This document shows positions 5,220 through 26,347 of a stretch of DNA of 26,347 bases, piece after piece; the stretch's first letter is position 1; each line of letters starts with the position of its first letter. The notes below the pieces were generated by a model. The model was not told the origin of the DNA and did not search any database. It worked only from the letters and a program-made list of their open reading frames with translations. The translations under genes and the position numbers were made by a program. The DNA is from a virus (taxonomy: Duplodnaviria; Heunggongvirae; Uroviricota; Caudoviricetes), in IMG/VR virus record IMGVR_UViG_2832576359_000003, positions 1 through 26,347 of that record. One strand, written 5' to 3'.

Positions 5220-6971
5220 ATGTCCGATTCAGCCGCGTCCGCAGCCTTTGACGGGGCCGCGCCCGAAGACGAGCGCTCCGAAGCGCTTGGCGCGCTGCAG
5301 CGCGAATACATGCCGACGCAGTCGGATTTGCTGCCTCCGGAGCACGTTCGTCAGATTCTTCAATTTGCCGAGTACAGTTTCGACGAGCCGTTCGCCAAGG
5401 CCATCGCGGACAACGGCGCGCCGTTCCCGAGCGAGGCCGCGCGCAAGAAGTTGCGCGGCATGCAGTCCGTGCAGCTCGACGGGTTCACGATCAATATCCA
5501 GGGCGATTTCTGGGAGCGGCCGACCGCGCTGTCGTATGACTCGTTGCGGCTCATGGTCGCCAAGACACCGATCCTGAACGCTGTCGCGATGACGCGCGTT
5601 CGGCAAGTTCAGCGCTTCTGCCGCGTCGCCGAGAAGGGCGTCGACGCCCCCGGATTCGATATCCGGCACGTTGACCGCAAACACCAGCTCACGAAGGCCG
5701 AGCAGGAGTCGATCGGGCTCTTGAATCGCTTCATGGTCAATTGCGGGTGGGAATTCAACCCGCGCCTTCGGAAATCGCTGCGCCGCGACTCGCTCTCGCA
5801 GTTCATGGCGAAATCGGTGCGCGACTCGCTCGTGCTCGACTCGGCGCCGATCGAGACGGAATGGAAGCGCAACAAGAAGCTGGGCATCGACGGGTTTTAC
5901 CCGGTCGACGGCGCGACGATCCGCCTCTGCACCGAGGACGGCTTTCACGGGAATGAGGCCATCTGCGCGATTCAGCTCGTGGAAGGACGCATCACGGCGG
6001 CCTATACCCACGACGATCTGATCTACGAGCCGCGCAACCCGCGCACGGAGGTCAACGCGGTGGGCTATGGCATCTCCGAGACCGAGCTGCTCGTGCGCGT
6101 CGTGTCGGGCTACTTGAACGCTATGACGTACAACATCAAGGGCTTCGACTCGAACCAGATCCCCAAGGGCGTCCTGAACCTCGTTGGCGATTACAGCGAA
6201 GCAGACTTGAAGGCCTTCCGTCGCTACTGGAACTCGCTTGTCAAAGGCGTGAGCAACGCCTGGACGCTCCCCGTGCTCGCGGCCAAAAACAGCGAAGCGA
6301 AGGCCACGTTCGAGAAATTCGGCGTCGAATTCAACGAAATGTATTTCGCGAAGTGGATGACGTTCCTGACGTCGATCATTTGCGCGCTGTGGGGCATGTC
6401 GCCGGCGGAGATCAATTTCGACAGTTTCTCGGGCGGCAATACGTCGCCTCTTTCGGGTTCGGACACGGCAGAGCGCTTGGCCGCCTCCAAAGATTCGGGG
6501 CTGCGGCCTCTGCTCGCGCACTACGAAAACCTGTTCAGCGATTTCCTCATCGCCGAGTACTCGGACAACCTCGTGTTCCGGTGGACGGGGCTCGACCCCG
6601 AGGACAAGGAAGCGAAACAGGAAATGCGCAAGCTCGTTCTGACGGTCAACGAGATCCGCGCGGAGGAAGGGCACGAGGCGATGGAAGGTCCGCTCGGCGA
6701 TGCCCCGGTGAATCCCGCGTTGATTCAGCCGTGGATGGCCTTCAACGGCCCGCAGCCGGCCGAAGGTGCCGACGGCGGCGCCCCGGGTGCTCCTACCGGC
6801 GCAGGCGGCGCGCGGGCCGCAGATCCGGACGCCGAGCCCAACGAAAACGACACCCCCGAAGAAGACGCAGCGCCCGGATCGGAATCTAGCTTCGGCGAGC
6901 AGCCGGGCGAGGACTTCGGAAAGGCATTCAATCTGCCGCCCATTTATTCGACTGAGGACATGCTCGCATGA
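5220..6971 (+). CDS. Portal protein (583 aa), HK97-family, SPO1/Twort-like
   Basis: Motifs FYPVDGATIR, GYGISETE, PKGVL, NAW.LPVL, EMYFAKWMTFLTSIICALWGMSPAEINF, SKDSGLRPLL, TVNEIRAEEG. First gene of the head module, with an acidic C-terminal tail. Confidence 0.92.
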   Translation: MSDSAASAAFDGAAPEDERSEALGALQREYMPTQSDLLPPEHVRQILQFAEYSFDEPFAKAIADNGAPFPSEAARKKLRGMQSVQLDGFTINIQGDFWERPTALSYDSLRLMVAKTPILNAVAMTRVRQVQRFCRVAEKGVDAPGFDIRHVDRKHQLTKAEQESIGLLNRFMVNCGWEFNPRLRKSLRRDSLSQFMAKSVRDSLVLDSAPIETEWKRNKKLGIDGFYPVDGATIRLCTEDGFHGNEAICAIQLVEGRITAAYTHDDLIYEPRNPRTEVNAVGYGISETELLVRVVSGYLNAMTYNIKGFDSNQIPKGVLNLVGDYSEADLKAFRRYWNSLVKGVSNAWTLPVLAAKNSEAKATFEKFGVEFNEMYFAKWMTFLTSIICALWGMSPAEINFDSFSGGNTSPLSGSDTAERLAASKDSGLRPLLAHYENLFSDFLIAEYSDNLVFRWTGLDPEDKEAKQEMRKLVLTVNEIRAEEGHEAMEGPLGDAPVNPALIQPWMAFNGPQPAEGADGGAPGAPTGAGGARAADPDAEPNENDTPEEDAAPGSESSFGEQPGEDFGKAFNLPPIYSTEDMLA

Positions 6972-7315
6972 GTACGGCCGTATTTTTCAAGGCGATCAAG
7001 CCGGCGAAGTCTCCCAAGGCAGGGAAGGCCTCGAAGATCAACAAGCAGGGGGACGGCAACCCTCTGGCCGGTCTCCTGTCGATCCTCACCGAGCACAAGG
7101 TGGGGCAGAAATTCGGGCCCGACGTGGTGAAGGACGACCACGAAGTCACGTTCAAGGCCGGCACTTTCGTCGGCTCGGGTAAGGTCCGCGCAACCGGAAA
7201 GCATGGCTGCAAGGTCGAGGACGAAGAGGGCCGCGCGCACGACGTGCGCTGGCACGAAGTCACCGGGCACAAGGACGGCGGATCGGGCAAGCAGAAGGGC
7301 AATGCTGAAAAATAA
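6968..7315 (+). CDS. Small basic protein (115 aa), candidate internal head protein with an SH3-like beta C-terminus
   Basis: ATGA overlap with the portal gene, N-terminal FFKAI motif, Lys-rich. Confidence 0.7.
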   Translation: MSTAVFFKAIKPAKSPKAGKASKINKQGDGNPLAGLLSILTEHKVGQKFGPDVVKDDHEVTFKAGTFVGSGKVRATGKHGCKVEDEEGRAHDVRWHEVTGHKDGGSGKQKGNAEK

Positions 7316-8504
7316 CGTGTTCCTCGATATCGGCCCGCTTTCGTGTGCGTGCTCGGACCACGTGCTCGGCACGATCGCGAAGGCGCTGTCAGGCTCGGAC
7401 GGCCTGTCGCACGACATCTGGGCGCTCCACGAGAGCCCGTTCGTGCGCTCGCTCGTCGAACTGTTCTCGTCGCGCGGCCTGCTGCAGCTCGACAAGGTGC
7501 AGACCGAGCTCAAAGCATGGGTCGCGGGCAAGCGCTTCATTCCGAACGGGCTCGGTGTCGACGGACGGCCCGTGCTTTCGGTCGGCCGGCTGGATGCGAA
7601 CGAACTCGCGCTCGTGCGCATCTATCTCGAGAACCTGCCGCCCGAGAAATTCACGGCGGCCGACTGGAGCCTGTTGGTCGACTATCTCGTGAGCCGTTAC
7701 ATGCCACCCAAGGTCGCATATAGCGAGGCGGAGTGGCTGACGGTACGCTCCACTTTCATGGGAAAGGTGCAGGCGAACATCGCAAATCTGAACGCCGCGC
7801 AGGCGGAGGGACTCGTTGCCGCTCTGCCGAGCACAGTCGCCGAGGCGAAACGCGAGTTCAGCCCTTCGCCTTCGCTTCAGGCGATTATCGACTTCGGGCT
7901 CGAGCGCTGCGCCGACAACATCACCGCGATCAACGACGCGACGCGGCACCGAATCAAGCGCGTGATCATGAATCACGAAGAGCAGCGCTTGCTCGGCGAT
8001 CGACCGCCGGAATCGGCGTTGCAAACGCAGCTCGTCGACGAGTTCGCTGCGCTCAATCGTGACTGGCGTCGCATCGCTCTCACCGAGGTCGCCGAGAACG
8101 CCGGCAACGGCATGATTGCCTCGGTCGCGCCGGGCGGCCGCGTGCGGCGCGTCGAGCAGTACGTGGGTTCGTGCGACTTCTGCCGGAAAATCCACGGCCG
8201 CATCTTCACCGTCGTGTCGCCCGATAAGAAGGACAAGAACTGGGACACGGAGGTCTGGGTCGGCAAATCGAACATCGGCCGATCTGGCGCGAAGATGAAG
8301 CGCACCGATGATGGCCTGGTGCCGCGCGCCGAGTCCGAACTGTGGACGGTGCCAGCCGGCCCCGTTCATCCCCACTGCCGCGGTATCTGGGTTCCCGTCG
8401 AGGACGCGAAGCCGACCGACGATCCGTCGTTCGCAAAGTGGCTGGACGCGCATTTCGCTAAGCACCGCCGGTCCGCCGAGCAGCTCGCAGAATCCTTTCG
8501 CTAG
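7302..8504 (+). CDS. Head morphogenesis protein, Mu gpF/SPP1 gp7-like (400 aa)
   Basis: WRRIALTE...GNG, CDFC and HPHCRG motifs. Position after the portal. Start MLKNNVF at 7302. Confidence 0.85.
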   Translation: MLKNNVFLDIGPLSCACSDHVLGTIAKALSGSDGLSHDIWALHESPFVRSLVELFSSRGLLQLDKVQTELKAWVAGKRFIPNGLGVDGRPVLSVGRLDANELALVRIYLENLPPEKFTAADWSLLVDYLVSRYMPPKVAYSEAEWLTVRSTFMGKVQANIANLNAAQAEGLVAALPSTVAEAKREFSPSPSLQAIIDFGLERCADNITAINDATRHRIKRVIMNHEEQRLLGDRPPESALQTQLVDEFAALNRDWRRIALTEVAENAGNGMIASVAPGGRVRRVEQYVGSCDFCRKIHGRIFTVVSPDKKDKNWDTEVWVGKSNIGRSGAKMKRTDDGLVPRAESELWTVPAGPVHPHCRGIWVPVEDAKPTDDPSFAKWLDAHFAKHRRSAEQLAESFR

Positions 8505-8519
8505 TCGTGACGCCGTAAT
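8504..8519 (+). promoter_or_regulatory. Putative late promoter 2 (leaderless 73-aa gene)
   Basis: GTCGTGAC-GC-CGTAAT, with the ATG exactly 7 nt after the final T. Overlaps the inverted repeat TGACGCC-N5-GGCGTCA (8508-8526). Confidence 0.65.
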
Positions 8520-8525: not shown

Positions 8526-8747
8526 ATGCACAAGTTCACCGTCTACGAGCTACACCTCGCGGCCTATATCAAATCGAACGGCGCCACGTTCGATGGCCTC
8601 GATGGTCGCGGCTTCAAATTCACCTCAGATATCTCGGTCGACGCGTGGAAGGTCAAGCACTCCAACTCGTGCTGCCGTCGCGTTGATATCGAGCTAATCG
8701 GGCTGCGCAACTTCTTGCGCGACAAGTTCCCCGCAGAAAAGTCGTGA
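8526..8747 (+). CDS. Small protein (73 aa) resembling the DUF5659-type pattern (LAAYI..G...F.F)
   Basis: Fills the gap between the Mu-F and protease genes exactly. The family resemblance is from memory only. Confidence 0.75.
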   Translation: MHKFTVYELHLAAYIKSNGATFDGLDGRGFKFTSDISVDAWKVKHSNSCCRRVDIELIGLRNFLRDKFPAEKS

Positions 8748-8763: not shown

Positions 8764-9648
8764 ATGACTCCGCACACGAACAACGAAGCATTGCTGAGCA
8801 CGCTGCCCGATTTTCTCAGCGTGTCGCAAATGCTCAAGGCGACACCCGCGACAGAGGGTGACGCTCGCTTCGTGTATCTCGAAGCGTCGAATCAGACGCG
8901 TGACCTGCAGGGAGAAGTACTGCTCGCGAAGGCCCTCGAGGAGTCGGCCTCGTATTACCTCAAGTTCGGAAATCTGGATCTCGAACACTTCACGCAAATC
9001 GGCGCGAAGCAGGGCATCCCGATGTACGAGTCGTACGAAATCGGCAAGCCCGTCGATGTGCGTGTCGATGGCACGCGCACTTTCGTCAAGGGCCAGATCT
9101 ACACCGGCACCGGACCGGCTGCCGAGAAAGCAAATCTGTTCTGGTCGTCTCTCACGCAGATCGATCCGCCGAAGGACTGGTACCCGTCCGTCGGCGGTGG
9201 CGTTCTCGGCAAGAGCATCGCAATCGACCCGGAAACACAGCAGCCGTACCCCGTGATCACGAAAGTTCGGTGGTCGAACGTCGGGTTCTCGCGCACGCCC
9301 GTGAACCCTGACCTAGAAACAGTCTCAACGATGCCGATCGGCGTCCTCACCAAGTGCTGGGGAGCCGCGGGCATCGATCTACGCAAGTCCTTGACCGCTG
9401 GCTATTCGACCGACTCCGCGTCGATGACCGGCGGCGAAGCGCTGCGCATCCAGTCGCTTCAGGGCGGCAAGAGCAAGTCATACCGCGACTTCCGCGACGA
9501 GCTTGCAGGCGCCTTCATGAAGGGCGAAATCGCCGCTTGCGACAAAACCTCTTTGGTACGGGAGGCCGGCGCGCGTTTCGGTCTTTCTGACGCCGACGCC
9601 GCGCTGTACGTGGGGCGGTTTCTTGATGACCTCAAACGCGAGAACTAG
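8764..9648 (+). CDS. Prohead (capsid maturation) protease (294 aa)
   Basis: EAS...RDLQGE, LDLEH (candidate His), WYPSVGG (candidate Ser), ITKVRWSNVGFSRTPVNP. Located upstream of scaffold and capsid. Confidence 0.85.
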   Translation: MTPHTNNEALLSTLPDFLSVSQMLKATPATEGDARFVYLEASNQTRDLQGEVLLAKALEESASYYLKFGNLDLEHFTQIGAKQGIPMYESYEIGKPVDVRVDGTRTFVKGQIYTGTGPAAEKANLFWSSLTQIDPPKDWYPSVGGGVLGKSIAIDPETQQPYPVITKVRWSNVGFSRTPVNPDLETVSTMPIGVLTKCWGAAGIDLRKSLTAGYSTDSASMTGGEALRIQSLQGGKSKSYRDFRDELAGAFMKGEIAACDKTSLVREAGARFGLSDADAALYVGRFLDDLKREN

Positions 9649-9656: not shown

Positions 9657-10409
9657 ATGAAGTTTGACGAACTGCAGAACCTGATCAAGGGTGCCGACGA
9701 CCTCGCGAAGTCGCTGTCGGCCGCACCCACGGAGCCGATCAATAACGCAGCGGTCGCGGCTGCCGCGAAGGATGGCGCCGCCGCCGGTGGCGATGGAAAC
9801 ACGACCGCTCAGGATCCCAACGCATCCGCTGGCGATACGCCGGCTGAAGGCGACGAGGAAGACGAGGACAACCCCCTCGCGAAGTCGTTCTCGCTGACGC
9901 TCGAAGACGGCACGACGCTCGAAGGTTTCGACGGCACCGAACTCATCAAGTCGTTGCGCGCCGAGCTCGCTGCCGAAAGCGGCGCCCGCGTTGCCGACGG
10001 CGAGCAGTTCCTGAAGGCATTCGGCTCGGTGATCAGCATCGTCAACACGCTGACCGCCGAAGTGGACTCGACCAAGAAGGCCAACGCCGCGCTCGGGAAG
10101 CAACTCGACGCTGCGGCAGCTGAGATCGCAACCCTGAAGGCCGCAGGCGAAGAACTGACGAAATCGCTCGCGACGTTCGGTAACGAAGGCCGCGGGCGTC
10201 GTGCGGCCACCCTCGTCGTGCACAAGCCGCCCGTCGGCGCCGACGCGGGCACCGACCCCGTCCAGCCGTCGAAGGCCGAGATCCTCGCGAAGGCATTGAG
10301 CGCCATGCAGTCCGGCGCGATTTCCGGCTCCGAGGCCTCGCGCATCGAAGCAACTCTCAACGCCGGGCAGCAAGTGTCGAAAGCGCTGCTCGACCGCATT
10401 TTCAAGTAA
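9657..10409 (+). CDS. Probable capsid scaffolding protein (250 aa)
   Basis: AGGAG SD, helical/coiled-coil Ala-rich sequence with an acidic linker, position between protease and capsid, seven hydrophobic-x-K-S/A-hydrophobic motifs. Confidence 0.75.
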   Translation: MKFDELQNLIKGADDLAKSLSAAPTEPINNAAVAAAAKDGAAAGGDGNTTAQDPNASAGDTPAEGDEEDEDNPLAKSFSLTLEDGTTLEGFDGTELIKSLRAELAAESGARVADGEQFLKAFGSVISIVNTLTAEVDSTKKANAALGKQLDAAAAEIATLKAAGEELTKSLATFGNEGRGRRAATLVVHKPPVGADAGTDPVQPSKAEILAKALSAMQSGAISGSEASRIEATLNAGQQVSKALLDRIFK

Positions 10410-10448: not shown

Positions 10449-11897
10449 ATGGATTTTCAACCCGGCAATACTTCCGGCATTTCCACCGCTGGCGCGATGG
10501 GCACGGACGAACTGGCTGAACTGCAGAAGTCGCTCGAGGCAGGCTACGAGACCGACGTCGACGGCATGACCGGTGGCTCGGCGCTGCGTATTCAGTCGCT
10601 CGACTTGAATCTGCAAGCGACCGTGCAGCAGAACCACCACTTCGTGCTGTTCAACATGCTGCCGAAGCCCCGCGCGACGGCCGTGCTGGACGAATGGACC
10701 GAACAGCATGACATCGGCGGCTTCCTGGGCTCGACGTTCAATACCCAGGACGGCGCTGCGCAGCAAACGAACGGCAACTACGAACGCATGGTCGGCCAGG
10801 TCAAGTACATGACCACCTATCGTTCGATCCCGATCGTGCTGCAACGCCAGAACAACATCGTCGACGCTACCGCGATCGAAACGACCAACGGCACGAAGCA
10901 GCTGCTCACGGATATCGAATTCACGATGTTCGAAGGCGATTCGTCGGTGGTGCCGCTCTCGTTCGACGGTATCTACGCGCAGATCAATTCGCTGGACTCG
11001 GACGACCATATCATCGATTTGGCGGGCGCACCGCTGAACTCGATCGATGCGATCGCGACGGCCGCCGAGGTGATCTACGGCTACGGCAACTTCGGCCGCG
11101 CGACGGACATCTTCATTCCGCCGAGCGTGCAGACGGACCTGAACCAAGACCTGGACCCGGCATTCCGCGTGCTGCTGAACCAGGGCGCGCAGAACACGGT
11201 TCGCGGTACGTCGGTGTCGGGCATCCAGACGACCTACGGCGAGATCAAGACGCGCAACGACGTTTTCATCCGTGACGACAAGCTGAAGAAGCCGTTCGAG
11301 ACCGTCTCGCCGGCGCTCCAAGCAATCGCCGCCGCGAACGCGTTCAAGCCCGCTACGGTCACGCCGACGGCTGTCGCGACCGAGGTCGGATCGGCATGGC
11401 AAGCCTCGCAAGCGGGCAACTACTACTACGCCGTGGCTGGTATCAACCAGAACGGCCAGTCGCAGGCGCTCGTATCGGCACAGGTTGCGGTCGTCTCGGG
11501 CGGCGCTGTCTCGCTCGCGATCGCCGCGTCGGCAGGCGGAACCGAAACGGGCTACGTGATCTATCGCGGCCGCCTGAACGGCACGAACGCGCTGACCGAT
11601 ATGCGCGAGATGATCCGCATTCCGAAGGCCACGGGTGGCACGACGACGTACGTCGACACGAACTCGGAAATCCCCGGTTCGACGCGGGCATACATCCTGA
11701 ACTTGGCAGCGGAAGACCACGCTATCGCCTGGCGCCAGTATCTGCCGATGATGAAGATCCCGATGGCCGCGGTGAACAGCCCGATCATCCCGTGGCTGCA
11801 AATGATCTGCGGATATCTGCGGATCACGAAGCGCAACCAGCACGTCGTCGTGAAGAACATCGTTCCGACGCGCGCTGCCTGGAAGCCGTTCGGCTAA
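10449..11897 (+). CDS. Major capsid protein (482 aa), SPO1/Twort/K-like
   Basis: KSLEAGY...GGSALRIQSLD, IEFTMFEGDS, LSFDGI, FGRATDIFIP, YVIYRG, YVDTN..IPG, YLPMMKIPMA, VVVKNI correspond to motifs I recall from the phage K/A511 capsid protein. GGAGG SD. Confidence 0.9.
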   Translation: MDFQPGNTSGISTAGAMGTDELAELQKSLEAGYETDVDGMTGGSALRIQSLDLNLQATVQQNHHFVLFNMLPKPRATAVLDEWTEQHDIGGFLGSTFNTQDGAAQQTNGNYERMVGQVKYMTTYRSIPIVLQRQNNIVDATAIETTNGTKQLLTDIEFTMFEGDSSVVPLSFDGIYAQINSLDSDDHIIDLAGAPLNSIDAIATAAEVIYGYGNFGRATDIFIPPSVQTDLNQDLDPAFRVLLNQGAQNTVRGTSVSGIQTTYGEIKTRNDVFIRDDKLKKPFETVSPALQAIAAANAFKPATVTPTAVATEVGSAWQASQAGNYYYAVAGINQNGQSQALVSAQVAVVSGGAVSLAIAASAGGTETGYVIYRGRLNGTNALTDMREMIRIPKATGGTTTYVDTNSEIPGSTRAYILNLAAEDHAIAWRQYLPMMKIPMAAVNSPIIPWLQMICGYLRITKRNQHVVVKNIVPTRAAWKPFG

Positions 11898-11967: not shown

Positions 11968-11986
11968 CTTCTGAGAGGGTTTGAGA

Positions 11987-12358
11987 ATGAAGATTCTTTG
12001 CACGCTGCCGAACGCGTCGACGCTGATCAATGGTGTGAGCTTCGTCACGCACAAGCTCGGCGTGGTGTCCGAGGAAATCGAGGACGACGTCGCAGCTGAA
12101 TTCCTGAAGATCAAGGGCTATCTCCCGTTCGCGCCGAAGAAGGCCGCGCCCGCACCTGCTGCGACGGGTGCCGCGACCGATACGTCGAGCACGAGCACCG
12201 CTGACGCCGCTGCCACGCCTAGCGCTGCGACGGCGGCCGCAGCGGAAACAGCCGCCCCGGCTGCCGCTACGACCGCGGCTACGGCTACGGCGACGACTGC
12301 GGCCGCGACGGCCGCTGCCGCCCCCGCTGCCGCGTCGAGCGACGTTGCCACGAAGTAA
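11987..12358 (+). CDS. Small head-associated protein (123 aa) with an Ala/Thr-rich low-complexity tail
   Basis: GAGGG SD, ATG 11987, about 45 aa folded-looking N-terminus, position directly after the capsid gene. Confidence 0.75.
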   Translation: MKILCTLPNASTLINGVSFVTHKLGVVSEEIEDDVAAEFLKIKGYLPFAPKKAAPAPAATGAATDTSSTSTADAAATPSAATAAAAETAAPAAATTAATATATTAAATAAAAPAAASSDVATK

Positions 12359-12457: not shown

Positions 12458-13312
12458 ATGGCCATGACCGATTCGACCGATCCCACCTCCGGCACGACCA
12501 TGGTGTCGGCGCTGTTTCCCGATGCCGCATGCGCGATCGCCGATCTGCGCGCAATGCTCTCGATGAGCGCCGGCGGCCTCATCAACCTGTCCAAAGTCAG
12601 CGACACGACTCTCTGGAACAAGCTGATGGCTGCCGAGGCCGAGGCCGAGCGCATCCTGAAGACGTTCTTCGGCGCAGTGGAAGTTCTCCCGGATAACTGC
12701 GACCCGAGCGAAATCGCGGCGTTCGAGGCCGCGGGCACGCGCTATACGCTGGTGTCCGCCTTCGACTACGACCCCGACCTGTTCCGCAACGACGCCTGGG
12801 GCTATATGCGGCTGCCGTTCGCCCCGATTCAGCAGCTGCATTCGGTCAAGATCGTTTTCCCGGCTCCGTTCCTGCAGGACTACACGGTGCCCGAGGACTG
12901 GATCCGGCTCGACAGCAAGTACGGCGATTTGCAGCTCGTTCCGACGACGACGGCCCCCGTCACGCCGGTCGGCGCGTACGCGGTCGCGATGTGGGGCGGA
13001 ACGGTCTACCCGCAAGCCGTCCAGATGCGCTATCGCTGCGGCCTCACAAATGCGAGCGGAACGGTCGTAACGTCGTTCGCGCAACACTGGAACGACCTGG
13101 TCGACGTCGTGCAGCGCATGGCGATTATGAAGCTGCTGCGCATGGCGTTCCTGCCCACCTCGGCGTCGATCTCGGCCGACGGTCTGTCGCAGTCCAAGAG
13201 CTTCGATTACAAGGTGTGGCAAGACGGCATCGATGAAGTGCTGAAGGGCGGAAAGGGCGCGAACGGCGGCCTGTTCGTGCAAATTCACGGTGCAATGGGA
13301 TTGGTGGGCTGA
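12458..13312 (+). CDS. Head-tail adaptor / neck protein 1 (284 aa)
   Basis: Syntenic position. Motifs such as YMRLPFAPIQ, PQAVQMRYRCGL and TSASISADGLSQS are typical of gp15-like adaptors. Confidence 0.7.
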   Translation: MAMTDSTDPTSGTTMVSALFPDAACAIADLRAMLSMSAGGLINLSKVSDTTLWNKLMAAEAEAERILKTFFGAVEVLPDNCDPSEIAAFEAAGTRYTLVSAFDYDPDLFRNDAWGYMRLPFAPIQQLHSVKIVFPAPFLQDYTVPEDWIRLDSKYGDLQLVPTTTAPVTPVGAYAVAMWGGTVYPQAVQMRYRCGLTNASGTVVTSFAQHWNDLVDVVQRMAIMKLLRMAFLPTSASISADGLSQSKSFDYKVWQDGIDEVLKGGKGANGGLFVQIHGAMGLVG

Positions 13313-13313
13313 C

Positions 13314-14818: not shown

Positions 14819-14837
14819 TTGTAAATCTCCTGCGCTC

Positions 14838-14853
14838 AGTGTTCCGTCACGAG
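14838..14853 (-). promoter_or_regulatory. Putative late promoter 5 (inverted neck gene)
   Basis: Minus strand CTCGTGAC-GG-AACACT. The base 7 nt downstream is the first A of AGGAG. Confidence 0.7.
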
Positions 14854-14869
14854 GTCGTGACGCGAGTCT
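14854..14869 (+). promoter_or_regulatory. Putative late promoter 6 (tail terminator-sheath-tube operon)
   Basis: GTCGTGAC-GC-GAGTCT, with ATG 14876 exactly 7 nt after the final T and no SD. Confidence 0.7.
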
Positions 14870-14875
14870 GTGTGC

Positions 14876-18359: not shown

Positions 18360-18388
18360 AGCCGGCCGCCTGCGTGGGGCCGGCTTTT
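18360..18388 (+). terminator. Probable weak intrinsic terminator after the tube gene
   Basis: Stem AGCCGGCC/GGCCGGCT followed by only a short T run. Confidence 0.55.
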
Positions 18389-18419
18389 CCAATGGTGCAG
18401 GTATCAGGGGTAGAGGAAA

Positions 18420-18830
18420 GTGCGCAGTCAAAAGGACGAGACCCAATTTCACATCGACGTCAAAGGCGTTGGGCGGTATCTGTTCCGCCGGCGTCAGATG
18501 GCCGATCAATTCAAGATTCGCGGCATCTACGCGCAGCTCACCGGCGGCAATTACGACGAGCAGGGACGCATGACCGACGTGTCGGCGCTCGCGTTCGCGT
18601 GCATCAAGGTGCTCGCTGTCGAGCAGCCCGCGGATTTCCACATCGAGCGCATGGACCCGATCGTCGACGAGAAGCTCGACGATCGCCTGGTCGAAGTCTA
18701 TATCGCGCTGACCGAAAAGGAGCGCTCCTTTCGACCTGGTTCGGCGGCGGCGGTCGAGGGAGCGGGGGCGGGAGCTGGCGAAGACGTACGAGCTGTGGTT
18801 CCGCCGAACGTATCGGCTGGCGCCGACTGA
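18420..18830 (+). CDS. Tail assembly chaperone, G form (136 aa)
   Basis: Lies between the tube and tape measure genes, AGAGGA SD, GTG start. Confidence 0.8.
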   Translation: MRSQKDETQFHIDVKGVGRYLFRRRQMADQFKIRGIYAQLTGGNYDEQGRMTDVSALAFACIKVLAVEQPADFHIERMDPIVDEKLDDRLVEVYIALTEKERSFRPGSAAAVEGAGAGAGEDVRAVVPPNVSAGAD

Positions 18831-19131
18831 TCCTCGTTTTCTTTGCGCGACGCCTGAGCAGATCGAGGCCGAATATTGGGCGTACTACTTCGACGCGAAA
18901 AAGAACGGCAGCGACTTCGAAGACGACAATTTCAACCTGGACGACACGATCGCGCAGATCGAGGCCGAGGCGGAATCGGGCGAAGTGGCGATCGAGTATC
19001 AGGTCGGTGCGGAGCCGCGGCGCGCACCCGAAGCCGCGGCGCCGGATCACCGTCCAACCCCTGAAGAAATCCGCGCGATCGACGATTGGGAGGAGGTAAC
19101 CGACCTCTCGAATCTCGGCCCCGGGTCGTGA
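18733..19131 (+). CDS. Frameshift extension of the tail chaperone (GT form, fused product about 236 aa); not in the ORF track
   Basis: The +1 frame opens at 18712 after a TGA, has no ATG, and reads ...ELWFRRTYRLAPTDPRFLCATPEQIEAEYW... to TGA at 19129-19131. Candidate shift site TCC TTT CGA at 18726-18734. Confidence 0.8.
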   Translation, partial: DLVRRRRSRERGRELAKTYELWFRRTYRLAPTDPRFLCATPEQIEAEYWAYYFDAKKNGSDFEDDNFNLDDTIAQIEAEAESGEVAIEYQVGAEPRRAPEAAAPDHRPTPEEIRAIDDWEEVTDLSNLGPGS

Positions 19132-19168: not shown

Positions 19169-21847
19169 GTGACGGACGTACGGATTGGGGTAGCCGGAGA
19201 CGTTGGGGCCGCGAAAGCGGCCATCAACGTCATGGCCGACGCGATGAACAAGCTCGCGAAGTCGGTCGCCGACGCGAACAAGGTCGAATACAAGGCCCCG
19301 GGCCTCGAGGCCGTCTCCAAGGATCTTGCGAAGATCCAGAAGCAGTTTCAAGACGCCATTCGGCAATCCACGGGTCTGCGTAACGCGCTGAAGAACAGCG
19401 GGCAAAACGCAGACGCCGGGATTCTCAATATCGACTGGAACAGGCTCAACATCGATCCGAAGATCGCGGCGTCGCTCAAGGCGCGCACGATCGCCTTCGC
19501 GACGCAGGGCACATCGCTCGACACGAAAAACACGTTCGGCCAGGCGACCCCCAACCCGGCACCTGCCCCCCGCGATCGTCAGTCGCAATCCTCGACGCGC
19601 GGCCCCGGTGTCGGCACGCAGGCGGCTCAATCGTTCGCGAGCGGCGTGGGCGGCGCGGCCGGCCAGATCGGCAACAGTGCAATCAAGGGCGCCGCTTCCG
19701 GCGCGAAGGCCGGCGTCGATCCGGATGAGGGCGGCATCAACATCCTGGGCGGCGTTGGCGGCCTCCTGAAGGGGGCAGGTATCGGCGCGGTCATCGCGGG
19801 CGGCCTGGCGGCCGGGAAAGCCGTTTCCAACGGCATCGATATGGCGAAGGATCGGGCCATGACGCTCGACACCCTAAAACGCCAGATGGGTGACCTGGGA
19901 TTCAGCTTCGACGAGCTCAAGGAATCGGCTAAAGGTGTCAGCGTAAGTCTCGGCGTCAATTCGGCTGAGTTCGCGCGTCTGGAGCAGCAAAATCTGCAGG
20001 CCTCGCACGGAATCGTCGGCAACGAGTTGCACGACTCGACCGAGTTCGGCGTCGGCGCCGCGCGCGCGTATGGCATGGACCCGTCGGCCTATCTGGCTTT
20101 CCAAGGCCAGATGCGCGCTATCGACCCTGCGACGGACCATCGCCAGCTCGCGACGTACATCGCCGAGGCCATCAACGGCGCGGGCAGTAAGGCGCTCCCG
20201 CAGGAGGTCATCCAGGCGATCCAGTCGCTTTCCTCCTCGACGTCGCGCCTGGCGCTATACGCGCCGAATGTAGGCGCTGAAGGCTCTGCCTTCACGTCCA
20301 TGCTGCGTGACAACAAGGTCGGCATGACGCCCGATGTCGCGCAGGCGATTCTCGGGCAGGCCAATTCGTCGATGATGAACATGGGTTCCGCCGGCGAGGC
20401 TGGGAAGAACTTCATCATGCAGGCGCTCAACGACCAGGGCGGCACGACGATGAACCCGCTCGAGGCGCGCGAGCTTGCTTCGGGCGGCCTATTTGCGACG
20501 CCACGCACGCGATTTGCACCGAACAGCACCTACGCCAAGTTCGTGAATGACGACGCTCGCATGTCCGCGCTCGCGAATGGTCCCAACGCCGACCGCACGA
20601 ACATGGAGGCAATCCGTGCCTATGCCGACAAGGTGTCGGGCGGCAACAAGGAACTTGAGCTCGACTTGGCACAGAACCTGTACGGGCTTTCGACACAGGA
20701 TCAGGCAGCGGCGCTGCTCGGTGCCAATCCGACTAGTTACGGAAAGCTCGGCAAGCTTCTTGAAAAATCCGGCGTCTCGCTGAACGACGTGAATGGGTCC
20801 GGGCTGGCCACGCTTGGCCGGCTCTCCGGCGCCAGCGACATGTGGGATTTGAACGGGATCTACCAGGATCTCCAGCAGCGCACCGGCAACTCTGCGCTCT
20901 CCGACAGCGCCAAGAGCGATCTCGAGAAGGCGCACGCCACGGGCGATTTCGATACGTTCCAGCAGGCGATCGCGAAGGCGGTCGCGAGTATGGGCCAGAC
21001 CGAAACGACCGCTACGCAAATGCGCAAGCTCGGCACCGGCGTCGATGACCTCGAAATCGGCGTGGGCGATAAAGCCCTGACCGTTCTCACAACGATCGAG
21101 GGGGGTATCGACAAGCTCGTGAATTACTTCACGAGCGGCGCGGGCGGCCTCGCCGACCAAGTATCGAACTCGCTCGACATCGGCGTTCATCCATCGGGAC
21201 CGGGCGGCACCACTCCGGCTCAATGGAACAACTACGGGTCCTACACGCTCGCACAGAAGCAGCGGGTCATCTCCAGCATGGAGGAGCAGTACAACTTGCC
21301 TGCGGGTTTGCTGAAGGGCGTATGGGGCACGGAATCGTCGTACGGTCGCGACGCGACGAAGGCATCGTCTGCCGGCGCGCTCGGGAATTTTCAGGAGATG
21401 CCAGGAACGATCAAGCGCTACGGCGTCAAGATCGGCGACTTCGCGTCTGAGGCCGACGGGTCTGCTCGCCAACTGAGCGACCTCATCGCTTTGCACAACG
21501 GAGACGTGAAAGAGGCGCTGCTCGACTACGGTGGATTCAACCCCAAGGATCCGAATCGGGCCGTGCGCGGCGCGGGCTACATCGCGAAGGTCGAGGAGGC
21601 GGGCGGCGTAAATGAGCTTGGCCCGCAGATCATTCCCGAGGCGGACAACAAGCTCCCGACGAGCGATCCCTCGTCTTCGTCCAAGGCGGCGAAAGCGGCG
21701 CCGTCGTCGGGCTCAACCGACACCGTTGTCGTCGACATGAACTTCAACGTTCTGGACGCGTCGACAGGCCAAAAGAAGACGCTCAACACGTCGGTGAACG
21801 TGCCGCGCGGCTCGGGCACGCAGTACGTATCGGTCACCGGGCAATAG
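19169..21847 (+). CDS. Tape measure protein with a C-terminal lytic transglycosylase (SLT) domain (892 aa)
   Basis: Long Ala/Gly-rich helical protein after the chaperone. At about 21270-21600: YNLPAGLLKGVWGTESSYG, SSAGALGNFQEMPGT, ALLDYGG, YIAKV. Confidence 0.88.
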   Translation: MTDVRIGVAGDVGAAKAAINVMADAMNKLAKSVADANKVEYKAPGLEAVSKDLAKIQKQFQDAIRQSTGLRNALKNSGQNADAGILNIDWNRLNIDPKIAASLKARTIAFATQGTSLDTKNTFGQATPNPAPAPRDRQSQSSTRGPGVGTQAAQSFASGVGGAAGQIGNSAIKGAASGAKAGVDPDEGGINILGGVGGLLKGAGIGAVIAGGLAAGKAVSNGIDMAKDRAMTLDTLKRQMGDLGFSFDELKESAKGVSVSLGVNSAEFARLEQQNLQASHGIVGNELHDSTEFGVGAARAYGMDPSAYLAFQGQMRAIDPATDHRQLATYIAEAINGAGSKALPQEVIQAIQSLSSSTSRLALYAPNVGAEGSAFTSMLRDNKVGMTPDVAQAILGQANSSMMNMGSAGEAGKNFIMQALNDQGGTTMNPLEARELASGGLFATPRTRFAPNSTYAKFVNDDARMSALANGPNADRTNMEAIRAYADKVSGGNKELELDLAQNLYGLSTQDQAAALLGANPTSYGKLGKLLEKSGVSLNDVNGSGLATLGRLSGASDMWDLNGIYQDLQQRTGNSALSDSAKSDLEKAHATGDFDTFQQAIAKAVASMGQTETTATQMRKLGTGVDDLEIGVGDKALTVLTTIEGGIDKLVNYFTSGAGGLADQVSNSLDIGVHPSGPGGTTPAQWNNYGSYTLAQKQRVISSMEEQYNLPAGLLKGVWGTESSYGRDATKASSAGALGNFQEMPGTIKRYGVKIGDFASEADGSARQLSDLIALHNGDVKEALLDYGGFNPKDPNRAVRGAGYIAKVEEAGGVNELGPQIIPEADNKLPTSDPSSSSKAAKAAPSSGSTDTVVVDMNFNVLDASTGQKKTLNTSVNVPRGSGTQYVSVTGQ

Positions 21848-21851: not shown

Positions 21852-23357
21852 ATGCTAAACATCACCTCGCATACGCCTGGTATTCAGGTCTTGCTCAGAA
21901 AAAACGTGGGGCGAAGCACCGTCGACGGCACGACGCCTGTGTCATCGGTCTGGGCCGGACAATCGCCTGTGGTCGATCTCACGCCGTACCTGTCGGATTC
22001 GCTGCCGGTGCGTGTGCGCAAGTCGGTGCACGAGGACGCCGGCGCATTCTCGTTCCAGATCGCGGACCAGATCGACAAGGACGTTCTCGATACGCTGTAT
22101 TCGGTGATCGAACCGATGGACGTCATCGAGATCCGCATGGCGCACGACGCGTACGTCTACGCCGGCCTCGATTTGCCGATCATGATGCGCGGCTTTGTGA
22201 GCAGCGTGCGTCGCACGCAAGCAATGGGGCACGAGGGAAAGCCTAAGCGCATCGTCTCCGTCAGTGGCCACGACTACGGCAAGATTTTGCAGCGGTACCA
22301 GGTCTTCTATCTGCCCAGCGTGCCGGGCGATGCTATGGCGATGATTACCTCGTTCCCGTTCTTCACGAAATTTGGGGACTTCGCCAACGTCAAAGAGGCG
22401 GGTGCCTTCGTGCAGGCCGTTGTCGATCAGGTTATCAACCCGTACTTGTCGGCCATGATCTCGACGTCGCCAAACGTGGCCGCGGTCAAGACCTTGTCGA
22501 CAGATATCCAGGTGAGCGGCGGGGTGGTGTCACCGTACGGATTCGGCACGTTCACGCAAGGCACGCTGCTGCAACTATTTCGACAGAATTGCGACGTCGG
22601 CTCGTGGAATGAGCTGTTTATCGAGGACCGAGCCGACGGCCCATACCTCGTCTATCGGCCGAACCCCGCACTCGATATCGTCTCTGGCGTTTGGCTGATG
22701 CAAGGCGCCGCGGTGTCGGGCGCCTCGGCGCCGAGCGTGATTGAAATCGACGACACCGATGTCCTGTTCTACGACGTCGGCCGTAGCGACGCGAACGTCG
22801 CGAACGTGTTCTGGGTTGATTCCCATCGATACGCGCTGAACTACGACTTCACCACGAAGGCGCTCGCCTCCGTTGCGCCCTCAGTGTCGGCCACCGCTCC
22901 CGTGGCCGAGACGTCGTACGGCAACGTCAACCCCGCGCTGTACGGATGGTCGAAACTCGAGGAGATCACGAACCAGGGTCACCTCGACGAGACGGATAAC
23001 GGTAACGGCACGGCGGCCGGCGCTTCTCGCAACTCGAACAACGGCTACGGGATCGACTGGCTCAATACGCGCCGCGCGCAGCTCTATGCCCAGAACAAAG
23101 ACAACGTGATCTTCGAGTCCGGCTCGATGCGCGTCAAAGGAAACGAGCAAATCCGCGCTGGCCTCTATGTCGCGTACACGCACGGGAACCTGCGATCGCT
23201 CCACTATGCCGAGGCCGTCGATCACGAATTCATCCCGTTCGGAAACTACTTCACTTCGATCTCCTTCGCGCGCGGCACCGGGTTTTCAGACCGGATCAAG
23301 CAGAACGATCAGATGCAGTCCCCGTATTACGCTGAAAACGTCGTGGTCAACCCATAA
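21852..23357 (+). CDS. Baseplate hub protein (gp27/gpD-like, 501 aa)
   Basis: Position after the tape measure. Motifs GAFSF, IEPMDVIEI, MRGFVSSV, VSGHDYGK, WNELFIED and GSMRVKGNEQIRAG. Confidence 0.75.
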   Translation: MLNITSHTPGIQVLLRKNVGRSTVDGTTPVSSVWAGQSPVVDLTPYLSDSLPVRVRKSVHEDAGAFSFQIADQIDKDVLDTLYSVIEPMDVIEIRMAHDAYVYAGLDLPIMMRGFVSSVRRTQAMGHEGKPKRIVSVSGHDYGKILQRYQVFYLPSVPGDAMAMITSFPFFTKFGDFANVKEAGAFVQAVVDQVINPYLSAMISTSPNVAAVKTLSTDIQVSGGVVSPYGFGTFTQGTLLQLFRQNCDVGSWNELFIEDRADGPYLVYRPNPALDIVSGVWLMQGAAVSGASAPSVIEIDDTDVLFYDVGRSDANVANVFWVDSHRYALNYDFTTKALASVAPSVSATAPVAETSYGNVNPALYGWSKLEEITNQGHLDETDNGNGTAAGASRNSNNGYGIDWLNTRRAQLYAQNKDNVIFESGSMRVKGNEQIRAGLYVAYTHGNLRSLHYAEAVDHEFIPFGNYFTSISFARGTGFSDRIKQNDQMQSPYYAENVVVNP

Positions 23358-24292
23358 TGAGTCTCGAGCTTGGTGCAGTGGTGGCGGTCTATCCGCAGGG
23401 CACATCGGTCGATATCGTGCTGCGCAATGGCGCGCGCTTGGCGAATGTGCAAGTCATGCGAGGCGAAGCGAGCGACGCGAGCGGCCGGCAGGATCTCATC
23501 GACGTCGGGGGGCCCTCGGGCGAGCAGCGGTGGGTCCTGACCTCCGCGTTCGAGCGCTACGTGCGTGCGGTCATTTCCTACATCGGTCAGGTTCCCATCT
23601 GCCTGGGATTCGTGTTCCCGCAGGTCTCGCAGATGACCTTCGATCGTAAGAATTTTCGCGTCGATCGGCATGGCTCCGACGTCTATTCCACGATCAACGA
23701 CTCGGGCGATATCGAGCAATACCACCCGAGCGGCACGTTCCTTCGCATCGCATCGTCCCCGACGCATGAGGACCTGACCGGGCAAGACTTCGACCAGCAG
23801 TGGGCCATCGAGCGCAACACAAGCGCGGCCGTCTATGTGAACCTGACGGTGGCAAACGCGGGATCGGTTGTGGCCACGTTCGAAATTGACCCGGCCGGCA
23901 ATGTGTCGCTGGTGAACGCGGGCAATCTCACGGCGAAGGTGGGCGGAGATATCGACATCTCTGCAGGCGGGGATCTCGATGCCGAAATCACCGGCACAAC
24001 AACGATTACCTCGGGGGGCGCCGCGACGCTCAAAGCGCCGTCTGTGACGATCGACTCGCCCACCACCACGTGCACGGGGACGCTGACGGTTCAGGGCGCG
24101 CTGACGTTCCAGGCTGGCGCAACCGGCTCGGCAGGATCCGGCGGAGGGGCGGCAATCAGTCTGACAGGGGACGTCTCGGTGACAGGCGGCATCACGTCCA
24201 CGGGCGACCAGGTGGCGGGGAACATCTCGCAAATCAACCACGAGCACACGTCCGAAAACCCGGGTTCGCCGACGAGCCCGCCGATTGCGTGA
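23357..24292 (+). CDS. Baseplate central spike (gpV/gp5-like, 311 aa)
   Basis: N-terminal OB-like region, Gly/Thr-rich beta-helical repeats, C-terminal HEH (INHEHT) metal-binding apex motif. Confidence 0.85.
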   Translation: MSLELGAVVAVYPQGTSVDIVLRNGARLANVQVMRGEASDASGRQDLIDVGGPSGEQRWVLTSAFERYVRAVISYIGQVPICLGFVFPQVSQMTFDRKNFRVDRHGSDVYSTINDSGDIEQYHPSGTFLRIASSPTHEDLTGQDFDQQWAIERNTSAAVYVNLTVANAGSVVATFEIDPAGNVSLVNAGNLTAKVGGDIDISAGGDLDAEITGTTTITSGGAATLKAPSVTIDSPTTTCTGTLTVQGALTFQAGATGSAGSGGGAAISLTGDVSVTGGITSTGDQVAGNISQINHEHTSENPGSPTSPPIA

Positions 24293-24320: not shown

Positions 24321-24321
24321 C

Positions 24322-24996
24322 TTACTGCGCTTTCGAGGTCAACGGATAGCCGTTGGCCAATGCCGTATCAGATATTCCGGTGGCGCGATATTTCTTGACG
24401 GCTGATTCGGCTTCGGACCGCGCGTCGAACGGTCCCATTCGCAGCAAATAGACGCCGTCACGCTCCAACACGAACGTCGAGAGGCCCTGTGATCCGTTCA
24501 AATACGCGGCCCAAGCGCTCGCCTGCGCGAGGTTCTTGTATTTCGCCAGTTGCACGTAAATGTGCTTGCCGTCCAGAGCTTGCGGAGGCGTCGTCTGGAT
24601 ACTCGCTTCGCTCGGCGCCGACTTCTGAGGCTCCTCTGCTGGCTCCCCATCGCCGAGCTTCATATCGGTCGAGGTGAATTCCGTTTGCTCGCCCTCGTGC
24701 GCCCAGGTCACGGAAAACGTGTTGACGTGTTCCCCTTTGGTAACCACAGCACACCCTATGTTGACCGTTCCGTCTTTCTGGTTTTTCGCGAAGACGAGCG
24801 ATCCCTTCGGATCACGGGGGACGTTTGCATAGCCATCCTCCGGCATATTCGAGCAGGGGGCGTAGCTAAATTGAATCGTGTTTCCAGTCAGCTTCGACAC
24901 CTGGTGGGCGATCACAATGCTGTCCGCGATGCTTGGCATGCTGACGGCGCTGAGTATCAATCCGGCGAGCAGCAATCTGGTCGATTTATTCGTCAT
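24322..24996 (-). CDS. Secreted SPOR-domain protein (224 aa), antisense moron
   Basis: N-terminal Sec-type signal (MTNKSTRLLLAGLILSAVSMPSIA). C-terminal IYVQLAKYKNLAQA...GVYLLRMGPFDARSEAE matches the SPOR pattern. Start at 24996. Confidence 0.82.
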   Translation of the reverse strand: MTNKSTRLLLAGLILSAVSMPSIADSIVIAHQVSKLTGNTIQFSYAPCSNMPEDGYANVPRDPKGSLVFAKNQKDGTVNIGCAVVTKGEHVNTFSVTWAHEGEQTEFTSTDMKLGDGEPAEEPQKSAPSEASIQTTPPQALDGKHIYVQLAKYKNLAQASAWAAYLNGSQGLSTFVLERDGVYLLRMGPFDARSEAESAVKKYRATGISDTALANGYPLTSKAQ

Positions 24997-25079: not shown

Positions 25080-25095
25080 GTCGTGACGCCACAGT
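25080..25095 (+). promoter_or_regulatory. Putative late promoter 8 (baseplate operon)
   Basis: GTCGTGAC-GC-CACAGT, with ATG 25102 exactly 7 nt after the final T and no SD. Confidence 0.7.
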
Positions 25096-25101
25096 CGTGG
25101 C

Positions 25102-26347
25102 ATGGTCTCCTCCCTGTCTTCGATCACATCGTCCGTCTCGTCAGTCTCGTCGACGCTGTCGTCGTTGTCTGGCGCGCTGTCCAACCTGAGCCCGCCATCG
25201 AGCCAAAAGCCGGGCGATCGGCCCGTGCTGTTTGCTCTCATCGACGGTACGACAACCGGCTCGTCGGCAAGCTCGAGCGGCGGCTCGGATAGCTCGTCCG
25301 CACAGACGCAGTCGATCACGTTGAATATCCGTCCGGAGGAAATTACGCGAAGCGCGCCGTCGCGCGCCGTCGTGCAGCAGACGTTCGGGGGCGCCTGGGT
25401 CGACGATTGGGGCACCGGGCTGACCCAGGTGAACATCTCGGGCACGACGGGGTGGCGAGGCGTGCAAGGCTCCGACGGCATCGACCTGTATATCGCGCTC
25501 AAGGGGATGGTGTGGAACAGCTTCTATCGGAAGCGGAACGACGCCCGAAAAAACGGGCAGGACCCCAATCTGGTTGTCCTGAAATTCGTCGACGCGCTCG
25601 ACAGCACAGTTCTAAGCGTCATTCCGACGCAATTCACGATCCGTCGCTCGAAGTCGCGTCCGCTGCTGATCCAATACAACATCTCGATGATCGCGCTCGC
25701 GCCAACGACGTACACGCCTGCGTCGAGCAGCGGCGTCTCCGGATTGCTCTCTGGGCTGCTGAGCGCGGCGGGGCTCACGTCGATCGCATCCGCCCTCAGC
25801 ACGATTACGTCGGCGATTTCCACCGCGGTGTCGTTCGTCGAAAACGACATCATTGGTCCCGTGACGGCGCTGTTGAGCACGGCGGCCGCGGTGATCGGCG
25901 TCGTCGTGTCGGCTGTTGCAGCGGGCGTCGCGGTGGTGTCTTCGGTACTGAGCATCGCCACGCTCGTGGCCCAAACCGGCGCGCAGATTATGCAGACGCT
26001 GGCGACGGCGGACGGCCTTTCGAATAGCACGATGTCGTCGCTCGTGACGACCGGTGGGGCTTTCACGAACTGCTATTGCTTGCTCTCCAACACGGCGAGT
26101 TCCGGTTACACCTATCCCGATTATTCGTCGATCGACGGTGCATCGAATTGCTCGTCGACGGCGGGCGGCTCGCCCTCGAGCACGTACACGATTGATGGCA
26201 CGAACCCGTTCGACGACATCGTCGGGACGACGGCTGCGCCACCGGTCCAGATCAGCGCGGCGGCAACGAACGCGCTCCAGCAAATCGTTCTCGCCGATCC
26301 AGTCCTGTCTCCTCTGACAAAGACCCAGATTTCCTCTCTGCTGACGA
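25102..26347 (+). CDS. Baseplate core / tube-initiator-like protein, truncated by the window end (at least 415 aa); not in the ORF track
   Basis: I translated an open frame from ATG 25102 to the window end. NIRPEEITRSAPSRAVVQQTFGGAWVDDWG...ISGTTGW and FTIRRSKSRPLLIQYNISM resemble the K/SPO1-like baseplate protein. Confidence 0.85.
   Translation, partial: MVSSLSSITSSVSSVSSTLSSLSGALSNLSPPSSQKPGDRPVLFALIDGTTTGSSASSSGGSDSSSAQTQSITLNIRPEEITRSAPSRAVVQQTFGGAWVDDWGTGLTQVNISGTTGWRGVQGSDGIDLYIALKGMVWNSFYRKRNDARKNGQDPNLVVLKFVDALDSTVLSVIPTQFTIRRSKSRPLLIQYNISMIALAPTTYTPASSSGVSGLLSGLLSAAGLTSIASALSTITSAISTAVSFVENDIIGPVTALLSTAAAVIGVVVSAVAAGVAVVSSVLSIATLVAQTGAQIMQTLATADGLSNSTMSSLVTTGGAFTNCYCLLSNTASSGYTYPDYSSIDGASNCSSTAGGSPSSTYTIDGTNPFDDIVGTTAAPPVQISAAATNALQQIVLADPVLSPLTKTQISSLLT

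Follow-up and report, generated by a model that had tools for sequence, protein, structure and literature searches.

Virion module of a likely phage-plasmid from a Gram-negative host shares ancestry with the virion module of Herelleviridae

Herelleviridae, the family of phages SPO1, K and 812, are strictly lytic viruses of Bacillota hosts, with genomes of about 125-170 kb, long terminal repeats and a replication core of family A DNA polymerase and replicative helicase. Another group of phages, with genomes of about 90 kb and Gram-negative hosts, has cultured members of its own. For Pseudomonas phage Touem01 (PP179325, 91.6 kb), the name Toucanavirus emiw has been put forward and a temperate lifestyle predicted (PMC11256456); Bordetella phage vB_BbrM_PHB04 belongs to the ICTV genus Phabquatrovirus, with no family; and the similarity of Morganella phage Mecenats66 to PHB04 and to Pseudomonas phage Dolphis was found to be confined to morphogenesis genes, in a paper that does not contain the word Herelleviridae (PMC9503643). 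Our literature search found no paper linking the ~90 kb Gram-negative clade to Herelleviridae, a link that is implicit in PHROGs. Here we analyse a stretch of 26,347 nucleotides from a tailed-phage genome (IMG/VR record IMGVR_UViG_2832576359_000003; the whole stretch is called the window), of which positions 5220-26347 are a myovirus virion module, comprising most of the late structural operon.

The window covers positions 1-26347 of contig C11 (90,347 bp, 62.8% GC), part of a bacterial assembly of 6.64 Mb in 43 contigs at 64% GC, in which the capsid gene occurs only on C11. The first 96 bases of C11 are identical to its last 96, and this exact terminal overlap gives a circular assembly of ~90.25 kb; the contig encodes a TrfA initiator (1.4e-30) and a ParA ATPase. 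Taken with the data below, this makes it highly probable that we are dealing with the virion module of a complete temperate phage-plasmid of a Gram-negative host, belonging to the known ~90 kb clade and having a common ancestry with the Herelleviridae module. A sequence-only reading of the same DNA had described a SPO1-like module in a GC-rich genome; the GC content is 61-65%, and the virion gene order from portal to baseplate is borne out by Pfam, PHROGs and phmmer comparison with SPO1 coding sequences.

Clade placement and kinship with the SPO1/K-type virion

A tblastn search with the major capsid protein returned 763 phage records, nearly all of them Herelleviridae at ~25% identity, and the top ten were ~90 kb phages of Gram-negative bacteria at 38-63%. 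The best matches are Touem01 (63%), Mecenats66 (57%) and PHB04 (43%), with Aeromonas ST4, Pseudomonas Dolphis and Jeremy, Yersinia fHe-Yen8-01 and two enterobacterial phages also at the top; their genomes all measure 86-95 kb. Next come Thermus phages at 31-37%, and then Herelleviridae and a few Bacteroides phages at ~25%. In IMG/VR there are 25 relatives sharing 61-76% identity, and many of these stand on contigs that measure 84-94 kb and are rated complete by CheckV; two relatives lie in Burkholderiales metagenome-assembled genomes (MAGs), one of them within a contig of 2.46 Mb. In a maximum-likelihood tree of 33 capsid proteins, with support from the Shimodaira-Hasegawa-like approximate likelihood ratio test (SH-aLRT), the Gram-negative clade has a support of 95 and the present phage sits in a sub-clade (98-99) with the Burkholderiales MAG and IMG/VR sequences. 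The sister group of this clade is formed by the Thermus phages, and Herelleviridae and Bacteroides phage SJC03 lie beyond a branch with support 100. The deep branching order is provisional, as the tree tool warns of long-branch joins at the deep node.

Membership in the clade is also seen in the colinear virion module, in the inversion of one neck-region gene (the gp7.1-type gene, described below) and in a large terminase of ~870 residues that is 54% identical to that of Touem01 and 38% to that of Mecenats66. The only megablast match is one of 74% over ~750 bp of the portal gene, in Dolphis and Jeremy, which falls short of genus-level nucleotide similarity. Since no close match exists at the DNA level, the phage is a new species of the known clade and probably represents a new genus. 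Herelleviridae does not include it, and it is not an unknown sister lineage either. The latter had been the proposal of the sequence-only reading, which was to fall if close relatives proved to be classified already, as they are: the capsid protein nests among those of the cultured phages Touem01, Mecenats66, PHB04 (genus Phabquatrovirus), ST4, Dolphis and fHe-Yen8-01.

Kinship with the SPO1/K-type virion is nonetheless evident, and the resemblance to K, A511 and SPO1 virion motifs noticed earlier reflects a homologous and colinear, if distant, module (phmmer and PDB searches; ~25% identity). About 17 proteins match SPO1 proteins in the same order by phmmer, and comparison with phage K leads to the same assignments for adaptor, stopper, gp169, sheath and tube. 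Against the PDB, the capsid protein matches SPO1 Gp6.1 (9vel) at 1e-27 and the phage 812 capsid protein (5lii) at 4e-22; together with the sheath, the stopper candidate (8q01_S) and, by profile, the terminator, these are the best matches to solved structures. Gene order, the ~17 homologues and the same recoding site show that the module shares ancestry with that of Herelleviridae. As in SPO1, K and 812, the genes run from portal to baseplate, protease and capsid protein have a 37-residue motif in common, and the chaperone gene switches to the +1 frame at UCC-UUU-CGN. Unlike the Herelleviridae module, the present one has its gp7.1 homologue inverted, an added Mu-F-like gene and a spike with an HxH tip, and its hub is without the extra lysin domains of the Herelleviridae gp12.1-type hub. 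The genome is of 90 kb versus 130-150 kb in SPO1, K and 812, and a plasmid-type replicon in a Gram-negative host takes the place of a replication core of its own. The kinship thus covers the virion and packaging genes only, the rest of the replicon being plasmid-like (TrfA, ParA).

Among cultured relatives, Touem01 has a colinear virion module, inverted gp7.1-type gene included, with 52% identity in the portal and 51% in the sheath in addition to the capsid and terminase values above. It also has a ParA-like gene and the chaperone frame switch (there TCT TTT CGC). It differs from the present phage by an integrase-family gene, where the present contig has none and carries TrfA instead, and by the absence of the SPOR insert; most non-structural genes are unrelated, few of the present proteins having a match in Touem01 apart from those of virion and terminase, and there is no nucleotide-level similarity between the two. 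Bordetella PHB04 and Morganella Mecenats66 (PMC9503643) share the module order and the inverted gp7.1-type gene. PHB04 is 61% identical in the portal and 53% in the sheath and has the same HxH spike tip, whereas its capsid protein, only 43% identical, falls in a different sub-clade; Mecenats66, closer in its capsid protein (57%), has a separate spike-tip gene, unlike the present phage. Lastly, Thermus phages phiMa and Lalka8 (PMC11437467) have capsid proteins 31-36% identical to the present one and the TTT CGN chaperone switch found here, but genomes of 52-72 kb and a thermophile host. As a separate observation, the Lalka8 record (L047, 3083-4464) has a clustered regularly interspaced short palindromic repeat (CRISPR) region and a TnpB-family gene annotated directly after its capsid gene.

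The genes of the module were assigned with Pfam, PHROGs and phmmer against a set of 29 annotated SPO1 virion proteins. They are given below with window coordinates, strand and E values (gp names are those of SPO1 unless another phage is named; L numbers are comparison loci).

5220-6971, plus: portal (PF04860 3.5e-17; phrog_12 8e-39; gp3.1 1.6e-63)
6968-7315, plus: small conserved protein, after the portal and ahead of the Mu-F-like gene (found by tblastn in L008, L026, L021 and PHB04)
7302-8504, plus: Mu-F-like candidate minor head protein (reading frame opens at 7203; likely start 7302)
8526-8747, plus: small conserved protein (60-64% identity in IMG/VR loci L018, L039 and L019)
8764-9648, plus: prohead maturation protease (phrog_1028 1e-28; gp3.2 1.7e-8)
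9657-10409, plus: candidate scaffold (position and size as gp3.3)
10449-11897, plus: major capsid protein (phrog_752 6e-87; gp6.1 1.7e-31)
11981-12358, plus: small protein at the gp6.2 position (tblastn to ~20 related loci, residues 2-54 only)
12458-13312, plus: putative head-to-tail adaptor of gp6.3/phage 812 gp96 type (phrog_772 2e-12; gp6.3 7.5e-8; K gp171 0.002)
13290-13964, plus: putative stopper of gp6.4/phage 812 gp97 type (phrog_1004 3e-28; gp6.4 3.4e-11; PDB 8q01_S 1.3e-6; K gp170 1e-10)
13961-14818, minus: homologue of gp7.1/K gp169 (gp7.1 1.6e-13; phrog_16819 6e-57)
14838-14869, no strand assigned: back-to-back pair of the promoter-like motif TCGTGAY-N3-A-N3-T, between divergent genes
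14876-15742, plus: putative tail terminator of gp7.2/phage 812 gp99 type (reading frame opens at 14870; gp7.2 0.007)
15766-16164, plus: small protein at the gp8.1 position (tblastn to L009, PHB04, Touem01 and L008, residues 79-132)
16174-17895, plus: tail sheath (PF04984; phrog_279 1e-58; PDB 5li2, phage 812, 2.7e-17; gp9.1 4.4e-34)
17911-18351, plus: tail tube (phrog_985 3e-36; gp10.1 6.7e-14; K gp165 2e-9)
18420-19131, plus: tail assembly chaperone (short form 18420-18830; predicted long form 18420-18731 + 18733-19131, +1; gp10.2 9e-4)
18726-18734, plus: proposed +1 frameshift site TCC TTT CGA
19169-21847, plus: tape measure with lytic transglycosylase domain (PF13406 4.5e-7; PF01464; phrog_2013 2e-19; gp11.2 4e-7)
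21852-23357, plus: baseplate hub, gp12.1 homologue (phrog_1015 3e-13; gp12.1 1e-4; 33-40% identity to clade relatives)
23357-24292, plus: central spike (phrog_9992, phrog_430; gp12.2 0.006)
24322-24996, minus: secreted SPOR-domain protein (PF05036 1.4e-11)
25102-26347, continuing to contig position 26379, plus: tail tube initiator/baseplate protein, gp13.1 homologue (PF23980 2.6e-11; phrog_1011 1e-34; gp13.1 5e-20)

The module continues past the window, with baseplate wedge, J-like and fibre genes, to ~31 kb of C11. Genes matched to SPO1 on the rest of the contig are:

contig 26376-26999: match to gp14.1 (2e-18)
contig 27062-28210: match to gp14.2 (3e-23)
contig 28207-29313: match to gp15.1 (5e-10)
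contig 83497-86115: large terminase (gp2.11 9e-16; phrog_675 9e-90)

The chaperone frame switch and the inverted neck gene

The chaperone had been recognized by the sequence-only reading; the gene occupies two frames. The GC signal at third codon positions (GC3) leaves frame 0 (18420-18830) near 18720 and appears in the +1 frame, which is open from 18712 to 19131 and has no start codon before 18985. From ~18715 onwards this frame is homologous to the +1-frame open reading frames (ORFs) that follow the chaperone in L008, L009, Touem01 and PHB04, and the extension matches SPO1 gp11.1 at E 8e-6; the GenBank record of SPO1 describes gp11.1 as made by +1 ribosomal slippage. An in-frame TTT CGN stands at the frame switch in 19 of 19 genomes of the Gram-negative clade examined, in both Thermus phages and in five Herelleviridae (SPO1, SP-10, K, LMTA-34 and Bastille); besides the window, the loci with this signal are L008, L009, L001, L004, L005, L017, L054, L055 and L057-L073. 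The site reads TCC TTT CGA in the present phage, L009 and PHB04, TCC TTT CGT in L008, SPO1 and K, and TCT TTT CGC in Touem01. The two frames overlap only briefly in K, LMTA-34 and Bastille, where the +1 frame becomes open just two codons ahead of the site and frame 0 ends two or three codons past it; this pins the site. TTT accounts for 17% of the Phe codons of C11 and CGA for 9% of the Arg codons; that a codon so rare is kept in 19 GC-rich genomes points to selection on the RNA as the force that retains UUU.

Based on these comparisons, we propose that the chaperone would be made in two forms through a +1 ribosomal frameshift at UCC-UUU-CGA, needed for tail assembly. The tRNA-Phe would slip +1 from UUU to UUC while the slow Arg codon waits. 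A -2 event may take the place of the +1 slip. A -1 frameshift into the frame 18374-19099 was ruled out, because GC3 and homology both follow the +1 frame. The long form of the chaperone is unannotated in most of the records, and the downstream ORF of K is labelled 'RNA polymerase beta subunit'.

We also lean, with some reserve, towards regarding the ~90 kb Gram-negative clade, the Thermus phiMa/Lalka phages and Herelleviridae as one ancient virion lineage, at about the level of an order, sharing gene order and a single +1 recoding signal, (UCC-)UUU-CGN. In such a lineage the signal would have persisted as a nucleotide sequence in genomes ranging over 35-66% GC and on both sides of the divide between Gram-positive and Gram-negative hosts; in nearly all of these genomes it carries no annotation.

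In the neck of phage 812, gp96 is the adaptor, gp97 the stopper and gp99 the terminator, and the corresponding roles proposed for the present proteins are carried over from these homologues (PMC12886913). The terminator assignment (14876-15742) is made with moderate confidence: profile A2 matches PDB entry 8q01_M (phage 812 'Tail terminator protein') at 0.012, colinearly, and position and length are as in gp7.2. Single-sequence PDB searches returned nothing for the adaptor, the terminator or the gp7.1-type protein.

Three neck genes had been predicted in a row; their presence and order stand, while the third (13961-14818) lies on the minus strand. The alignment of this gp7.1-type protein with Touem01_00062, Mecenats66 ORF70, PHB04 gp015 and SPO1 gp7.1 (alignment A1) has 23 invariant columns and places the gene start at 14818, within a minus-strand ORF spanning 13961-15139. 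At its 3' end it shares 4 bases with the stopper gene. Taking the capsid gene as reference, the three cultured relatives examined and each of the 18 metagenomic loci extending to this gene have it on the minus strand, whereas the homologue is on the plus strand in SPO1 and K. ESM Atlas leads to Phage_tail_S and HK97-gp10, two tail-completion families, at 0.89, and the protein is possibly a tail completion protein. An AlphaFold model from 8 sequences has a predicted local distance difference test score (pLDDT) of 57, and a Foldseek search with it gave no significant match, the top row, a chain of a SaPI1 neck entry at E 1.5, being a lead only. The sole match of a gp7.1-family profile search, a ribosomal protein, was judged to be due to chance.

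The motif TCGTGAY-N3-A-N3-T has 7 hits in the window versus 0.46 expected. Two copies, one per strand, lie in the 51-bp gap between the gp7.1-type gene and the terminator gene, and the portal, protease, adaptor, tape measure and tube-initiator genes each have one of the remaining five just upstream. If the motif is a promoter, it would explain how the inverted gene is expressed.

Replicon, host and competing explanations

In addition to TrfA and ParA, C11 encodes RecT and a PD-(D/E)XK nuclease, methyltransferases, a Tad2-like protein and a NAPRTase/Prs pair. Inspection of the contig for integrase or partition genes, suggested by the sequence-only reading, yielded ParA on the one side and no match to tyrosine integrase (PF00589) on the other; neither PolA (PF00476) nor DnaB (PF03796) was matched on C11, with none among the large ORFs scanned, and no tRNA was found in the window. 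Upstream of the portal, a minus-strand cluster carries an RtcB RNA ligase (PF01139, 1.6e-130; window 1058-2407, minus) and runs on across the circular junction toward the NAPRTase/Prs pair; RtcB probably has a repair or counter-defence function.

A probable diderm host had been suggested earlier from the SPOR protein, the SLT domain and the HxH spike. SLT and SPOR domains are weak arguments; the conclusion is supported on other grounds, by LpxC in the host assembly, a family confined to diderm controls in our test, and by the nearest capsid relatives in Burkholderiales MAGs. A search of the assembly for 16S primer sites gave none. The host is most likely a Burkholderiaceae-type Gram-negative bacterium. 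With a complete phage genome, plasmid replication and partition genes and no integrase on a separate circular contig, C11 is most likely a complete ~90.25 kb temperate myovirus kept as a plasmid.

Several points weigh against this interpretation or against parts of the gene map. The frameshift is read from sequence, and an in-frame TTT-CGN occurs 15 other times on C11, so that extra context must matter. The scaffold is identified by its position only, and the Mu-F assignment by similarity to a predicted model only; matches to SPO1 are weak for the terminator, the hub and the spike (E 1e-4 to 7e-3 in the 29-protein set); and the model of the gp7.1-type protein, with its pLDDT of 57, gave no significant fold match. 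As for the replicon, we infer episomal maintenance from gene content, and a circular contig could also arise from a phage, replicating or contaminating, whose genome is terminally redundant. The sequences could accordingly come from a virulent or pseudolysogenic phage co-sequenced with the culture, its circle being the terminal redundancy left by headful packaging. Such packaging is reported or predicted for Mecenats66 (PMC9503643) and Touem01 (PMC11256456), genomes of this kind assemble as circles, and most cultured relatives are plaque-forming isolates. We nevertheless consider this origin unlikely: the TrfA initiator and ParA partition genes speak against a co-sequenced virulent phage, the GC content of C11 (62.8%) is near that of the host (64%), one relative sits inside the 2.46 Mb MAG contig, and Touem01 is predicted to be temperate (PMC11256456).

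It is far less probable still that the element belongs to Herelleviridae proper, as a deep-branching new subfamily that has crossed to a Gram-negative host. Such an origin would account for the colinearity and homology that link its virion module and chaperone recoding site to SPO1 and K, but the capsid protein is ~25% identical to those of Herelleviridae and separated from them by the branch with support 100, with Thermus phages branching closer. The genome, 90,347 bp with a 96-bp assembly overlap only, is not of 125-170 kb; PolA and DnaB were not found on C11, where TrfA and ParA are; and LpxC in the assembly, like the plasmid genes, does not fit a strictly lytic phage of Bacillota. Equally hard to credit is a defective remnant or a tailocin-type particle locus, for which we see no specific support, although particle production can't be read from sequence alone. 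The head, neck, tail and baseplate genes are all intact open frames, terminase (phrog_675, 9e-90), portal and capsid protein are all encoded on C11, and the contig is as long as complete relatives. The temperate phage-plasmid of the known clade remains the explanation that we favour.

Other genes of the module and their meaning

The particle would have an HK97-fold capsid matured by the prohead protease, a neck built of portal, adaptor, stopper and terminator, and a contractile tail with a lytic transglycosylase in its tape measure and an HxH tip on its spike. The Mu-F-like protein (7302-8504) has no Pfam or PHROG match, and SPO1 has no counterpart gene at this position. Its ESM Atlas model, from residue 34, has template modelling (TM) scores of 0.51-0.59 to PF04233 (Phage_Mu_F) clusters; this first residue of the model makes 7302 the likely gene start. 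The counterparts in Touem01, PHB04 and Mecenats66 (there a 'putative minor head protein') are 40-47% identical to it. The Mu-F label is a supported lead, suggested by the predicted fold. The gene ends in TCC TTT CGC TAG (8491-8511), a context like that of the chaperone shift site, with a promoter-like TCGTGAC directly after it; a second recoding event here was ruled out, as the +1 frame stops at once. The portal-protease interval is a variable cargo site in relatives: Mecenats66 has a 1371-residue helicase (L004, 13833-17948) and PHB04 a 2097-residue methyltransferase and a 1518-residue helicase (L005, 6317-17774), all absent here, and Touem01 a GDSL lipase (L001, 14979-16364), whereas no more than the Mu-F-like gene and two small ones stand there in the present phage.

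Similarity of the scaffold to SPO1 gp3.3 is not significant (0.22), with weak matches to PHB04 and Touem01. The 37-residue motif shared by capsid residues 15-51 (10491-10601) and protease residues 200-232 (9361-9459) has 65% identity (E 9e-9); the same cross-match is given by the protease and capsid protein of SPO1 and occurs in phrog_1028, and the motif may be a shared propeptide, targeting or cleavage region. Two small proteins combine a conserved part, the only part matched in relatives, with low-complexity sequence: that at 11981-12358 has a conserved N-terminal ~50 residues and an Ala/Thr/Pro-rich tail, and that at 15766-16164 an Ala/Thr-rich N-terminal part and a conserved C-terminal ~50 residues.

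The lytic transglycosylase (SLT) domain comprises tape measure residues 690-811. The protein aligns with SPO1 gp11.2 over residues 206-360, outside this domain, which is therefore uninformative on shared ancestry. The spike has a Gly/Thr-rich repeat region followed by a C-terminal HEH (residues 295-297), and Touem01 (HKH) and PHB04 (HGH) have an HxH equally far from the C-terminus, while SPO1 gp12.2 has none. The secreted SPOR protein of the sequence-only reading is real, with a Sec-type, signal-peptide-like N-terminus after an internal Met, and its gene lies on the minus strand. It has no match in Touem01, Mecenats66 or PHB04 and is an opposite-strand insert between spike and tube initiator that looks like a moron expressed during lysogeny.

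These results assign a ~90 kb phage, probably resident in a Burkholderia-family bacterium, to a poorly described clade without an assigned family. The particle of this clade is a distant version of the SPO1/K/A511 particle, so that high-resolution structures allow roles in the neck, tail and baseplate to be transferred. The clade-wide inversion of one neck-region gene and the conserved recoding site are the parts that go beyond routine annotation; the UUU-CGN switch is a concrete, testable site that would correct the chaperone annotation in the clade and in many Herelleviridae. A conserved structural module is here combined with differing maintenance systems, TrfA and ParA in the present phage, an integrase in Touem01 and neither evident in others, and such a pairing clearly exemplifies the movement of a virion module from one lifestyle to another.

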